A stretch of 54,525 nucleotides of DNA from a virus, in UHGV virus genome UHGV-0179380. One strand, 5' to 3'. The first letter of the stretch is position 1, and each line of letters opens with the position of its first letter. The notes beneath the pieces were generated by a model that saw nothing but the letters and a program-made list of their open reading frames with translations, ran no database searches and had not been told where the DNA came from. Shown in pieces: positions 30,252-35,727 of the stretch. Position numbers and translations under genes: made by a program.

Positions 30252-30449
30252 TTACAAATCACCAACCTTGCGCCAGTATCTATGATTAACCATCGTGATA
30301 ACTTCTTTCGCTGTCATAGGTAAAAATGGCTCATGCCACCGATCAAGACTACCGAGGCGCATCAAAACGTGCTCACCTTCGAGGCGGTAATAAGCTCGCG
30401 TAGCCAATGACTGATAAACGCCATCATATTCATGGTCGCTATTTCCCAT
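30252..30449 (-). CDS. hypothetical protein
   Basis: 65-aa ORF, first of small-ORF island upstream of lysis cassette. Confidence 0.4.
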   Translation of the reverse strand: MGNSDHEYDGVYQSLATRAYYRLEGEHVLMRLGSLDRWHEPFLPMTAKEVITMVNHRYWRKVGDL

Positions 30450-30705
30450 TTTTACGCTCCTTAATGGCTCGCCTGATTTGCTCTGCCGTAGCGTCGAAGA
30501 AAGCGATAAAAACAGTCACAGGCCAAAAAGGAATCTCAAGTCCACCAGGTTCGGCACCGCTAAACTTAATAAAACATGACATCAGGATCGCGCCAGCGAT
30601 ATAAAGCAAAACAATCACAGCTATAAGGCATTCAATCATCTTCACCCCCAAGATCGTGATAAATATCGTTAGGGTCTTCACCATGTTCCTCGCAAAAACG
30701 CTCAA
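30439..30705 (-). CDS. small membrane protein
   Basis: two hydrophobic segments; start uncertain. Confidence 0.4.
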   Translation of the reverse strand: MSVFARNMVKTLTIFITILGVKMIECLIAVIVLLYIAGAILMSCFIKFSGAEPGGLEIPFWPVTVFIAFFDATAEQIRRAIKERKNGK

Positions 30706-30763
30706 ATAGCGCCCAATTTTCAGAAAGAAACATGATTAATAAATTTTTATACCACTCTTCCAT

Positions 30764-31018
30764 TTAATCATCCTCATCGTTTTCATGTTCAGCCAGGAAC
30801 TCATCAATCACTCGGTAAGTTACTGGCGGGATGTATTCGAAATCATCAGAATCAAGATCAAGCGTCCGGCTGTCGCCGTCGTCGTCCAGCGTATTCATCC
30901 CTAACTCACCAAAAGGGCCGTATCCAATGTGGCCCAGGTATTCGCAACCAATCGTAAAGCCATGATATTCTCCTTTACACCGGATTTTGTAAGGTCTATT
31001 TGATGCGCTCAATTTCAA
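30764..31018 (-). CDS. hypothetical acidic protein
   Basis: 84 aa; strongly acidic C-terminal half (DDDGDSRTLDLDSDDFEY...EHENDEDD). Confidence 0.45.
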   Translation of the reverse strand: MKLSASNRPYKIRCKGEYHGFTIGCEYLGHIGYGPFGELGMNTLDDDGDSRTLDLDSDDFEYIPPVTYRVIDEFLAEHENDEDD

Positions 31019-31319
31019 TTCCCCCTTCTTCTCCTTCAGTCATTTTGTATTCTGCAGCCAGTTCAGCCCCAACCAATTCAACATCAATTTCACCTATTCC
31101 AGGGAACGCCAGATAGGCAAAAATAAGGCTTTTAATTCTATTCAGGTCTTCAAGATGGTCTGCATTAAAAGGCGGTTCAGTTACATGGAAGCATTTAACG
31201 TGCGTGTCGTCTTCAGTGGCTACACGGAAACATGCGCCAGGTTGTCCGGCGAATTGTCCTAATCTTTCCTCGTTCTGGAGAGTTCCACGGAAAACTTTAA
31301 CGCTGATAAATTTAGACAT
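30996..31319 (-). CDS. hypothetical protein
   Basis: 107-aa ORF. Confidence 0.45.
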   Translation of the reverse strand: MSKFISVKVFRGTLQNEERLGQFAGQPGACFRVATEDDTHVKCFHVTEPPFNADHLEDLNRIKSLIFAYLAFPGIGEIDVELVGAELAAEYKMTEGEEGGIEIERIK

Positions 31320-31342
31320 TTGCTATTCTCCTTTGTAAGAAA

Positions 31343-31672
31343 TTAAAATTCAGCACCAGGTAAGCTACGCGCTTTATTTACCGCATCGTGCTTTAACGAT
31401 AAACCAGCGTGATAATTCATAATCCCCATATTGCCTACTGGTATTTCATCATTTTCTGCCTTTATTCTTAACAACTGGTTTTTAGTGAATATCCTGTCTC
31501 CATCAGTGATATATAACCAGTCGCAGCGCTTACCAACAACAACATGAGATCGGCCTAAACTGTCTTTAAATTCATAATTGCAGAAAACATCATCGTTAGG
31601 GACTTCAACAAAACAGCACGCAATAAATTTAGCGCTTTTCATAATTACACCATTCTGATTTAATGGGGCCAT
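31343..31672 (-). CDS. hypothetical protein
   Basis: 109-aa ORF. Confidence 0.45.
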   Translation of the reverse strand: MAPLNQNGVIMKSAKFIACCFVEVPNDDVFCNYEFKDSLGRSHVVVGKRCDWLYITDGDRIFTKNQLLRIKAENDEIPVGNMGIMNYHAGLSLKHDAVNKARSLPGAEF

Positions 31673-31685
31673 CCGGCCCCGTGTT

Positions 31686-31826
31686 TTATTCTTCTTCGTC
31701 CCCCTTGAATCCTAAACACTCCGCGTATTCGTCAATGCTTAATGCTTCTTCACCTGGTGCCAGTTCTTCAAAATAGCGGGCGTATAGTTCAAAGACCCAG
31801 GCCGGATATTTAGCGTTAGCGTTCAT
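31686..31826 (-). CDS. small acidic ORF (46 aa)
   Basis: MNANAKYPAWVFELYARYFEELAPGEEALSIDEYAECLGFKGDEEE; SD aggggg; not in ORF track. Confidence 0.4.
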   Translation of the reverse strand: MNANAKYPAWVFELYARYFEELAPGEEALSIDEYAECLGFKGDEEE

Positions 31827-31836
31827 GTTTTCCCCC

Positions 31837-33619: not shown

Positions 33620-33834
33620 CGCTCAATGCTGATTAAAAAGTCCCGGATAGCGTGGCGCTCGTCGCGCGTTGGTTTACGCTTGCGGTAAATCCTGAAATCG
33701 AACCATTCTTTTTCCTGCTCGAAATCCAGATCGTAAGCAAGCGCCTCGATATATCCGCATTCGTGATACTGGTACGCCACGCCAGCACGAACAAAAAAGC
33801 GGGTTTTATCCCGCTTGTGTTCATAGATACGCAT
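33601..33834 (-). CDS. hypothetical protein
   Basis: 77-aa ORF. Confidence 0.4.
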   Translation of the reverse strand: MRIYEHKRDKTRFFVRAGVAYQYHECGYIEALAYDLDFEQEKEWFDFRIYRKRKPTRDERHAIRDFLISIERWGTEE

Positions 33835-33844
33835 ATTTACCCCG

Positions 33845-34075
33845 TTATGCAGTTGTGTAGCTGTCTACCAGCTTTTCATCCTTCATCCTTGCAAGCTGTG
33901 CGATATTCATCGTGTAGCCGCCATCAGAGAAAAGACCCTCGGCAACTTTGCGGCGAAAAGTGATATCGTCATGCAAGCGCGTCCATGTAGCGATCACCAC
34001 GCGCTTTCCGTCAGTGGCAAACATAGATAATTCATTATCAACTACGTCGATAGCCTGCCAGATTTTTAGCTCCAT
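33845..34075 (-). CDS. hypothetical protein
   Basis: 76-aa ORF. Confidence 0.4.
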   Translation of the reverse strand: MELKIWQAIDVVDNELSMFATDGKRVVIATWTRLHDDITFRRKVAEGLFSDGGYTMNIAQLARMKDEKLVDSYTTA

Positions 34076-34431
34076 GATTTATCCCCGTAAATTTTGAATA
34101 ATTCCCGCGCTTCCTGATCTTCGAATAGCTTCATATGCAGATCATGCAGGCGGCGCATTGTGCGGAAGCGTGGCCTGAATTCCTGGCTACGTTTAATGTA
34201 CTTACCGCCAATTGAGTAAATATACCCGTATGAGTACCATCTATTCCCTACCCATATTTCATATTCCTTTCCTTCGTAATTGAATTTTATCGTTAGCTCG
34301 CCTACTTCAACTATTAACCCTTTGTCAATAATGTCGTTAAGCATTTCGTCCCATTCTTTGAGGAATGGTTGTTGATAAAAGCCAAAAAGCGTATTTACAG
34401 CATGACAGAGATAATCAATGATTATTTGCAT
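34066..34431 (-). CDS. hypothetical protein
   Basis: 121-aa ORF. Confidence 0.45.
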   Translation of the reverse strand: MQIIIDYLCHAVNTLFGFYQQPFLKEWDEMLNDIIDKGLIVEVGELTIKFNYEGKEYEIWVGNRWYSYGYIYSIGGKYIKRSQEFRPRFRTMRRLHDLHMKLFEDQEARELFKIYGDKSWS

Positions 34432-34435
34432 ATTA

Positions 34436-34636
34436 TCACCACATCATATAATAAACGTTGTCATCAGCTAATTCGTCGGCGTCTCTTTGGCATTCGATTG
34501 TTGCGTCGTCTTCGTGCCATTCTTTTGCGAATAAACGCGCCCATTTACGACGCTCACGCTTATTGCGTCGCAGGTCATCAAAAACCATCAAAGCCTTGTC
34601 GTAAGCTCTTACCATGCGTTTCATTCTACTTTTCAT
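34436..34636 (-). CDS. hypothetical basic protein
   Basis: 66-aa ORF, Arg/Lys-rich. Confidence 0.4.
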   Translation of the reverse strand: MKSRMKRMVRAYDKALMVFDDLRRNKRERRKWARLFAKEWHEDDATIECQRDADELADDNVYYMMW

Positions 34637-34974
34637 TTTTCACCTCTTAGCATCCAATTCACATCACATTTAATTGCGAATACCTTAACAGGATCAGGGC
34701 CGAACAACGGGTGTATGATTGTTTTCACTTCATAGCCAAAATAAGGTAGGTCTATAATCCGGTGCTCTTCGTGTCCTGCCGGATAACCCCATTTAATGAA
34801 CAAACGTTCATATTCCCGACCTTCCAAGCGCTTGCGCCAATAGTCATTATAAAGCCGGTATTCCTCAACCTTTTTCCCTGCACGGATAGCGTGAAAGTAT
34901 TCTCCTTTTAAATTCAGATGCAGGTCTTTACTTGCCATCGCTATGATCCTGTAAACAGTCGTTATAGCCTTCAA
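34633..34974 (-). CDS. possible ASCH-domain protein
   Basis: segment IRAGKKVEEYR matches the GxKxxExR signature; start uncertain. Confidence 0.4.
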   Translation of the reverse strand: MKAITTVYRIIAMASKDLHLNLKGEYFHAIRAGKKVEEYRLYNDYWRKRLEGREYERLFIKWGYPAGHEEHRIIDLPYFGYEVKTIIHPLFGPDPVKVFAIKCDVNWMLRGEK

Positions 34975-35197
34975 TGTATCCGGTTAATCCAGTGTTACTA
35001 ACTGACCAGTCAGCCGAACGGCGCTTGATGGCCTTGTCCATATTCATTTCGTCACCTGGGCCGCCTGGCTCAATGTATTTTCTTAAATCCCTTGCTATCC
35101 ACGCCCTTAATTGTTGCGTATCACTGCACAAACGCGCGGATAACGTCAGGTCATTAACCAGCTTTGCAAATAGATGTTCTTTTAATTTAGGCTTCAT
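34928..35197 (-). CDS. hypothetical protein
   Basis: start trimmed to MKPKLKEH. Confidence 0.35.
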   Translation of the reverse strand: MKPKLKEHLFAKLVNDLTLSARLCSDTQQLRAWIARDLRKYIEPGGPGDEMNMDKAIKRRSADWSVSNTGLTGYIEGYNDCLQDHSDGK

Positions 35198-35534
35198 CGT
35201 CGTCACCATCGAAATACTGCTCAATCGCACGTTTGACGTTCATTTCACGCTGATAATTGTTATCGCTATAGATTGCTGCTGCCGATACGTGATCGATAAT
35301 TTGCTGTAATAAATCAGGATGAATTTTTATTTTTTCATCAAGGACAATGCGCGATGGCTTAGGTGCAGTGGCTACATCATAAACGATTTCTATCTCACCA
35401 CGCCCGCCGCAGCGAGGACAAACGAATTTATCACCTTGATACAGTATGAAGCCGCAACCTTTTTCAGTTTTTACGACCATGCCATCTTCGTCGCAGTTTT
35501 CGCAATACAGCCACCCAATATTAAGTATTTTCAT
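35187..35534 (-). CDS. zinc-ribbon protein
   Basis: CENC...CPRCGGRG cysteine pairs; start trimmed to MKILNIGW. Confidence 0.4.
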   Translation of the reverse strand: MKILNIGWLYCENCDEDGMVVKTEKGCGFILYQGDKFVCPRCGGRGEIEIVYDVATAPKPSRIVLDEKIKIHPDLLQQIIDHVSAAAIYSDNNYQREMNVKRAIEQYFDGDDDEA

Positions 35535-35727
35535 TGTCGTTACTCCGTCCATAAATGTGAACAGGTTCAATTGGCACGGCAGGTAATTCGCCTTCGTTTA
35601 ATGCGCTTGCCATGCCTAATATTAAACGCGCTTCTGTACCAGTAACTTTCTTACACCATGCACCGCCCGTTTTATCTTCGAACAAGATAACAGCGAACTG
35701 ATCGTTTATTTCCAGCTTATCCATCAT
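35521..35727 (-). CDS. hypothetical protein
   Basis: 68-aa ORF coupled to Q-like gene. Confidence 0.4.
   Translation of the reverse strand: MMDKLEINDQFAVILFEDKTGGAWCKKVTGTEARLILGMASALNEGELPAVPIEPVHIYGRSNDNENT

Follow-up and report, generated by a model that had tools for sequence, protein, structure and literature searches.

In lambdoid phages, the nin region is a polycistronic run of small, overlapping, and largely dispensable open reading frames (ORFs), delayed-early and mostly of unassigned function, which lies between the replication genes and Q, upstream of the latter, in the N-antiterminated early operon, beside NinG, RusA, and Q; the nin5 deletion of lambda is viable. In the canonical order, the Q gene is followed by the promoter PR', a sigma-dependent pause element, a terminator, and the late genes (PMC9388147). 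Runs of short, early, hypothetical ORFs also occur in virulent coliphages, among them ORF163-184 of rV5 and gp1-gp20 of LL5. Here, we analyzed an array of small genes (positions 30252-35727, minus strand) in the viral genome UHGV-0179380, a stretch of 54,525 nucleotides (nt) hereafter called the window. An earlier note on this DNA had put the array forward as an island of anti-defense candidates. We consider it an ordinary block of hypothetical phage genes, about which nothing specific shows that it blocks bacterial defenses, and probably a lineage-specific accessory array of the mEp-immI phages, situated between Q and its action site, forming the delayed-early tail and encoding binder proteins.

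The array is real and well delimited. Where about 21 small, tightly packed, and coupled ORFs had been noticed before, we called 22 minus-strand genes (g1-g14 and g16-g23; 43-121 amino acids [aa]) and one doubtful ORF, g15. Coding sequence of the 22 genes takes up 96.7% of the interval; overlaps occur at 11 of the 21 junctions, and the remaining gaps measure 0-23 nt, except for one gap of 101 nt that contains a hairpin. ORFs of at least 43 aa occupy 98.7% of the coding strand, compared to an average of 29% and a maximum of 48% over 300 shuffles. We also compared the array with six phage relatives and one prophage to obtain the ratio of nonsynonymous to synonymous substitution rates (dN/dS), for which gapless homologues were needed; g5 and g16 had none. 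For the other 20 of the 22 genes, dN/dS was 0.04-0.43, indicating purifying selection in all 20 measurable cases. By contrast, the 46-aa ORF g15 (32093-32233, minus strand) gave a dN/dS of 1.08 and overlaps the intergenic hairpin, and it is probably not a gene. About half of the island proteins have an isoelectric point (pI) below 5, versus roughly 11-14% of the crude ORF calls made in the rest of the window.

Landmarks in the window were placed by Pfam, and the array is therefore the minus-strand interval between the Q antiterminator gene, its upstream boundary (35724-36452, minus strand; PF03589 Antiterm, E 2.6e-30), and the lysis cassette, whose holin gene is its downstream boundary (29946-30146, minus strand; Phage_holin_2_3, E 1.8e-14). 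On its strand, the genes for ERF, Dam, NinG, RusA, and Q precede it, and its distance from the upstream repressor gene is ~10-16 kb. When the 5.5-kb array was used as a query against phage records, it matched MagusPhagus, mEp010, mEp044, mEp554, mEp013, mEp021, and mEp515 at 86-90% DNA identity, and prophage matches were found in 35 of 5426 complete E. coli genomes. Judged by this similarity, the source phage is an mEp021-type ("mEp-immI") temperate coliphage. In human feces, mEp-immI phages are reportedly as frequent as lambdoid phages. They are described as Nus-dependent, non-lambdoid temperate siphoviruses that originate from human feces (PMC11893012).

The upstream border ties the array to Q. 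The TGA stop codon of Q overlaps the ATG of g1 (ATGA). The mEp021 genome has no g1-g6, and there the Q stop overlaps the homologue of g7, which directly follows Q; whichever gene comes first is thus the one coupled to Q. The Q protein is 33% identical to lambda Q over its full length (E 2e-44), and PF03589 has been named the lambda Q family (PMC9388147). Relative to lambda Q, it carries a 33-aa insert with two extra CxxC motifs, which results in four DnaJ-like CxxCxGxG units in a row.

At the downstream border, g23 and the holin gene are separated by 105 nt, the only noncoding stretch of any size near the array. This stretch contains a candidate late promoter core (30204-30222, minus strand), made up of a -10-like TAAAAT (30217-30222) and a pause-like AACAAT (30204-30209), and, directly upstream of the holin gene, an intrinsic terminator (30163-30189, minus strand) in which a T run comes after a GC-rich stem of 7 bp. 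The order is TAAAAT, 7 nt, AACAAT, ~14 nt, the hairpin with its T run, 16 nt, and the holin ATG. Lambda PR' (NC_001416) reads TAAATT, 6 nt, AACGAT, and both hexamer pairs align with the present cassette in MAFFT. The noncoding block is conserved in all six phage relatives despite their differing upstream ORFs, and an exact 42-nt pattern taken from it retrieved 32 contigs from IMG/VR, which range from 8 to 77 kb (most of them 40-57 kb). In mEp021, the pre-holin hairpin is annotated as TERM_5 with a score of 100; the terminator t5 of this phage was experimentally demonstrated (PMC11893012), and we assume that t5 and TERM_5 are the same element. By its sequence resemblance, the segment 30147-30262 (minus strand) thus looks like a lambda-PR'-like late promoter cassette of predicted activity. 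It shares with the lambda Q/PR'/tR' system a lambda-family Q, the -10-like hexamer, an AAC(A/G)AT pause-like hexamer at lambda-like spacing, and a terminator before the holin gene. It differs in lying 5.5 kb from the Q gene rather than adjacent to it, in a weak -35, and in the distance from the putative start to the terminator (~25-50 nt, compared to ~194 nt in lambda). In this phage family, the Q gene is thus separated from its presumed action site by 1.9-6.7 kb of genes.

As the array begins at the ATGA overlap with Q and ends before the PR'-like cassette, it is most likely co-transcribed with Q as a delayed-early unit. With the presumed late promoter downstream of it, the array would be the tail of a delayed-early operon antiterminated by the N-like Gp17, and its products would be made in mid-infection and not in the lysogen. 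A promoter scan of the coding strand within the array gave only two weak 9-of-12 sites and no convincing internal sigma-70 promoter, and the total site count was no higher than in shuffles. In mEp021, nutR2 lies upstream of the array region, near methyltransferase genes (PMC11893012). A search for the lambda-type boxA (CGCTCTTWA) found no minus-strand site, and nutR2 was therefore not located in the window. The 101-nt gap between g14 and g16, the sole sizeable gap in the array, holds an inverted repeat predicted to fold into a very stable 15-bp RNA hairpin (32151-32184, minus strand) with a weak U-tract only; its minimum free energy is -34 kcal/mol over a 111-nt stretch (z = -5.46). At the equivalent position, ARNold predicts terminators in relatives. 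This hairpin divides the array into proximal and distal halves, exactly at the insertion site of the optional g16 cassette.

In several respects, this arrangement resembles the lambdoid nin region: both are polycistronic strings of short, overlapping ORFs that are largely dispensable and whose functions are mostly unassigned, the array would, like nin, belong to an N-antiterminated early operon beside NinG, RusA, and Q, and both have viable natural deletions, nin5 in lambda and mEp021 here. The array, however, lies downstream of Q and the nin region upstream, and so the gap between Q and its target promoter, ~45 bp in lambda, is widened here; moreover, no array protein matches a nin-family Pfam model.

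We then compared the interval across the 17 genomes in which both Q and the conserved pre-holin block were visible, with gene families defined by crude clustering. From Q to the block, the interval spans 1.9-6.7 kb and 8-28 ORFs, drawn from ~25 gene families that keep an identical order everywhere. The core genes g7, g8, g10, and g11 are present in 17 of 17 genomes, while g9 is found in all six named phage relatives and, by the crude call, in 13 of the 17 genomes. The smallest array is that of mEp021, with only eight ORFs, the core and three others; since this phage still plates on K-12, ~14-17 genes are naturally dispensable. The pattern of variation is one of presence and absence on a conserved scaffold, unlike the free turnover of some counter-defense hotspots.

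Within this scaffold, two paralogue groups were recognized. The small beta-barrel group consists of g12, g20, and further copies in relatives and shares the motif h+C..F..G..Y...DD.GD.W.F; the distal "EDGVY" group, which includes g23, is represented at the distal end of relatives by one to three tandem copies. All-versus-all BLAST and hhalign comparisons within the island supported g12-g20 as the sole pair (hhalign probability 71.5%, pairwise E 3.6e-5, for g12 against the g20 family). A relation between g19 and g20 was also considered and rejected, as the signal was an artefact of a chimeric sequence in the g20 alignment. That alignment combines a near-invariant acidic C-terminal half with at least four very different N-terminal halves, and it contains sequences in which g19 is fused in frame to g20, or g20 to g23. 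In one database protein, P0058, the N-terminal half of a g20 homologue is fused to the last ~45 residues of Q; since Q lies upstream of g20, this would require a duplication or rearrangement, or else P0058 is an assembly chimera. Both g12 and g20 are confined to mEp-immI phages, as is g17, bar one weak match in a Kosakonia phage.

Database searches assigned no established function to the proteins. None of the 23 ORFs reached a Pfam gathering score, NCBIfam and PADLOC gave no matches (the PADLOC models at E values up to 0.1), and the PHROGs matches of array ORFs were all to families of unknown function. Phmmer searches of the PDB with the 23 ORFs concatenated, and searches with the g20, g16, and g4 family profiles, returned nothing significant, and a literature search found no study testing any array gene. 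The strongly acidic ORFs reported in the earlier note lie exactly where it had placed them: g20 (30764-31018, net charge -13), g17 (31686-31826, net charge -9), and g16 (31837-32109, net charge -13), to which we add a fourth acidic mini-protein, g21 (30632-30763, net charge -11). The modeled structure of g20 (82-84 aa; predicted local distance difference test score 84.5) is a five-stranded, SH3-like beta-barrel with an acidic C-terminal helix, and its best BFVD match is the 58-aa LL5 gp10, which is encoded among small hypothetical genes beside nucleotide-kinase genes. The model of g16 (90 aa), also of confident fold, is a generic helical bundle. Fold searches with g16 and g20 retrieved only generic folds or uncharacterized phage proteins.

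A zinc-ribbon protein had likewise been noted before and is borne out by g2, in which C11-x2-C14 and C39-x2-C42, followed by GGRG, have zinc-ribbon spacing; its score to Pfam DnaJ_CXXCXGXG is below threshold (18.1 bits versus a cut-off of 32.7). Its similarity to the zinc fingers of Q is short and at motif level only; g2 was considered as a Q paralogue and rejected, the CxxCGxG motif being all that the two have in common. The ASCH-domain protein that had been suggested exists as g4 and is ASCH-like, but its score to Pfam ASCH (PF04266) is 16.1 bits, below the cut-off of 21.2, and covers residues 8-32 only. Among 30 homologues of g4, one matched ASCH at E < 0.01, and the g4 profile gave four marginal PDB matches, of which the ASCH-type 2z0t (E 0.25) and 3iuw (E 0.61) involve only the N-terminal 30 residues. 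NCBI names homologues of g4 "ASCH domain-containing," "RNA-binding protein," or "DUF3850." The family is widespread: 331 phage records carry a homologue, among them those of Stx phages, HK022, and phages of Salmonella and Ralstonia, and in lambdoids it often stands beside EaA.

Two array genes have direct homologues in rV5-like virulent phages. The g16 protein is ~81% identical to rv5_gp162, which is encoded downstream of an annotated sigma-70-type promoter, in a series of short ORFs; the nucleotide similarity is confined to the ORF and looks like a gene-sized cassette exchange. For g9, homologues of 43-51% identity were found in 119 records, nearly all of rV5-like virulent phages. The small-ORF runs of rV5 and LL5 are thus linked to the array by direct homologues (g16 and g9) or by the closest structural relative (LL5 gp10 for g20), but they belong to phages of other families and lifestyles, and some rV5 genes have their own annotated sigma-70-type promoters. 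About 18 MG0656xx records (75-140 kb), labeled as Campylobacter jejuni phages, also carry homologues of g16 and g9; since these are as identical as those of rV5-like coliphages, the records appear to be mislabeled or contaminating Vequintavirinae sequences. The homologue families of g16 and g20 are narrow, with 15 and 56 clusters, respectively, all from E. coli or phage metagenomes. An exhaustive search with g16 found nine representative clusters among 1.84 billion proteins, without domain fusions, and hence offered no guilt by association.

Together, these comparisons would make the products separate proteins of one domain each, of which g20 would be an SH3-like barrel carrying an acidic helix, g16 a helical bundle, g2 a zinc ribbon, g4 an ASCH-like RNA binder, and g22 a small membrane protein. 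Such proteins would most likely bind macromolecules of the host or of competing phages stoichiometrically and so adjust the infected cell. Several points weigh against the proposal of a delayed-early accessory array of binders. The promoter scanner did not call the TAAAAT site, and the -35 is weak, reading TTGTGG in most relatives and nothing recognizable in this window. Purified mEp021 virions contained the homologue of g10 (PMC11893012), an observation that would sit better with late expression. The array also keeps its content and order more strictly than a typical fast-turnover counter-defense hotspot. Finally, macromolecule binding is a generic expectation drawn from size and fold.

The anti-defense proposal holds that several of the ORFs inhibit restriction-modification, clustered regularly interspaced short palindromic repeats (CRISPR), or other defenses, with g16, g17, g20, and g21 as DNA mimics. 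We regard such an island as possible but rather doubtful, and we rate counter-defense by at least part of the array no higher; DNA mimicry of a known type is much less likely still. It is favored by proteins that are small, acidic, and nonessential (net charges of -9 to -13 over 43-90 aa, with pI values below 5 in about half of the island proteins), by gene presence that varies between close relatives, by the sharing of g16 and g9 with virulent rV5-like phages, where g16 sits among small ORFs behind its annotated promoter, and by paralogue families with recombinant N-terminal halves. In phi80, moreover, taiEcA (defense) and atiEcA (counter-defense) are regulated via a Q-controlled late operon (PMC11364771). 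The dispensability, acidity, sharing with virulent phages, and recombining paralogues would suit host-interaction genes in general, counter-defense genes among them. Conversely, no array ORF matches an anti-restriction, anti-CRISPR, or other characterized family in Pfam, PHROGs, or NCBIfam, or any PDB chain, and gene content and order are largely kept across the mEp-immI family. Classical anti-restriction must act at DNA entry, for which genes far downstream in a delayed-early operon would come too late. The idea that the acidic ORFs are DNA mimics gained no support. They do share small size and strong acidity with Ocr and ArdA (-13 over 90 aa in g16, -9 over 46 in g17, -13 over 84 in g20, and -11 over 43 in g21), but the 23 ORFs have no Pfam match to these families at E values up to 0.1 and no match to their PDB chains, the array is not at the leading, immediate-early end of the genome, and the predicted helical bundle of g16 and SH3-like barrel of g20 resemble neither protein. 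Since DNA mimics have many different folds, the missing Ocr/ArdA fold does not exclude mimicry. A narrower variant, in which the small beta-barrel paralogues (g12, g20, and others) form a recombining immune-interaction family and at least one of them inhibits an E. coli defense by a mechanism other than known DNA mimicry, appears unlikely. Such a family would resemble in kind Bas11 Gp54, a small beta-barrel of unassigned function that reportedly triggers CapRel SJ46; like g20, Gp54 stands alone as a small SH3-like barrel and is the product of an accessory gene in a coliphage.

It is also improbable, slightly more so than this variant, that the array belongs to a Q-dependent late unit or to a lysis or virion program, with its products being packaged internal proteins or SH3-type lysis helpers. 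Such a program would account for the detection of the g10 homologue in mEp021 virions by mass spectrometry (PMC11893012), and the array does adjoin the lysis cassette. In T1-like phages, a standalone SH3 protein (DUF7244) is encoded beside the lysis genes and has been proposed as a lysis helper (PMC13164509), and g20 shares the SH3-like fold with this Drexlerviridae protein. Nevertheless, the PR'-like cassette and its terminator lie downstream of the array and not upstream, g1 is translationally coupled to Q, and neither g20 nor g12 has a Pfam match, DUF7244 included, so that membership at the sequence level was not found. In addition, LL5 gp10, the nearest structural relative of g20, is encoded outside the lysis module, and no signal peptides or cell-wall-binding motifs were noticed. 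Least probable of all, and very unlikely in our judgment, is that the ORFs are prophage-expressed morons that benefit the host, for instance through superinfection exclusion or lysogenic conversion. In lambdoid phages, morons such as the stx genes are known to be inserted downstream of Q, and g22 resembles a small membrane protein. Yet no array ORF is framed by a promoter-plus-terminator unit, the promoter sites within the array are few and weak, with a total site count in the scan no higher than in shuffles, the genes overlap or abut like a single polycistronic unit, and no PADLOC defense model is matched. We therefore retain the delayed-early accessory array as the best explanation, with counter-defense as one plausible role of certain dispensable members, though of no ORF in particular.

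The genes of the proximal half, all on the minus strand, begin with g1 (35521-35727; 68 aa, pI 4.6), which matches phrog_35000 (E 1.8e-41), has a dN/dS of 0.06, and is present in 15 of 17 genomes. It is followed by the optional zinc-ribbon-like g2 (35187-35534; 115 aa, dN/dS 0.09, 6 of 17 genomes), g3 (34928-35197; 89 aa, phrog_29262 at E 5e-57, dN/dS 0.11), and the ASCH-like, putatively RNA-binding g4 (34633-34938; 101 aa, phrog_625 at E 3.3e-35). The highly charged g5 (34436-34636; 66 aa) is found in all six phage relatives at 61-70% identity, and its match to phrog_8758 (E 3.5e-23) covers the C-terminal positions 71-150 of 151. The largest gene, g6 (34066-34431; 121 aa, dN/dS 0.08, 16 of 17 genomes), matches phrog_16975 (E 8e-59) and, weakly, phrog_14894. 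The core gene g7 (33845-34075; 76 aa, dN/dS 0.12) is present in all relatives and precedes the core gene g8 (33601-33834; 77 aa), which has the lowest dN/dS (0.04). A terminator-like hairpin with a T run (33797-33816, minus strand) lies inside the 5' end of this universally conserved gene, and mEp554 has a predicted terminator annotated in the corresponding position. The near-core g9 (33377-33604; 75 aa, phrog_5009, dN/dS 0.11) starts with GTG.

The core gene g10 (33157-33372; 71 aa) has 93% identity to the mEp021 locus encoding mEp021_41, annotated as "virion structural protein" and detected in virions by mass spectrometry (PMC11893012). For the g10 homologue, a similarity to RegA has been suggested (PMC11893012); it was absent at the sequence level, g10 having no match among PDB sequences, RegA included. 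Two C-terminal forms of g10 occur among relatives, a 71-aa form ending in DEVLK, as in this window, and an 82-aa form ending in NENQGKLFPGER, as in mEp021_41; the longer form extends over the first ~35 nt or so of g11, read in a different frame (junction 33157-33160). The basic core protein g11 (32915-33160; 81 aa, pI 9.5, phrog_38609, dN/dS 0.09) is at least 79% identical across the 17 genomes. Next are g12 (32703-32915; 70 aa), a member of the small beta-barrel or "KC-barrel" group, and two optional genes, g13 (32436-32693; 85 aa, dN/dS 0.09, 5 of 17 genomes), found in MagusPhagus only among the six phage relatives, and the acidic g14 (32211-32426; 71 aa, dN/dS 0.11, 8 of 17 genomes).

Beyond the hairpin, the distal half begins with the optional g16 cassette (6 of 17 genomes) and continues with g17 (46 aa, phrog_22232, dN/dS 0.12), g18 (31343-31672; 109 aa, dN/dS 0.24), present in five of six phage relatives including mEp021, and the acidic g19 (30996-31319; 107 aa, phrog_23107 at E 8.5e-61), whose dN/dS of 0.43 is the highest among the real genes. 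After g20 comes g21 (43 aa), for which an identical protein is found in mEp010 and a dN/dS of 0.19 was obtained from two comparisons only. The hydrophobic g22 (30439-30639; 66 aa, grand average of hydropathy +0.78, dN/dS 0.17) is a probable small membrane protein by its composition. The last gene, g23 (30252-30449; 65 aa), has a weak match to phrog_15318.

Elsewhere in the window, the minus strand carries genes for an integrase (53431-54477), a CI-like repressor (45715-46362), an ERF recombinase (44133-44774), a Dam-type N6-adenine methyltransferase (39719-40258), NinG (37034-37729), and RusA (36618-37037), and the lysozyme gene (29453-30025) is next after the holin gene. The replication genes, encoding a Lin1244_N-type initiator (46927-47979) and a DnaB-type helicase (49513-50934), are on the plus strand, whereas the repressor, ERF, Q, and lysis genes are on the minus strand; the arm that holds Q and the late genes is therefore that of the repressor, unlike in lambda. 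The Dam-type methyltransferase gene lies upstream of the array in the same operon, and the mEp021 equivalent of the 38000-40300 region also carries an annotated cytosine methyltransferase. Self-methylation is an established anti-restriction strategy, and the upstream methyltransferase is better placed for anti-restriction than the small-gene array. Rfam and transfer RNA scans of the whole window found nothing, and a search for boundary repeats gave only short repeats at chance level.

For the biology of this phage family, the array would matter in two ways. If some of its genes do counter defenses, the mEp-immI phages would offer ~17 naturally dispensable candidates, and mEp021, with its minimal array, would be a ready control. 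A cis-preference of Q has been reported, and a distance of up to 6.7 kb between the Q gene and the presumed loading site of its product would bear on it.

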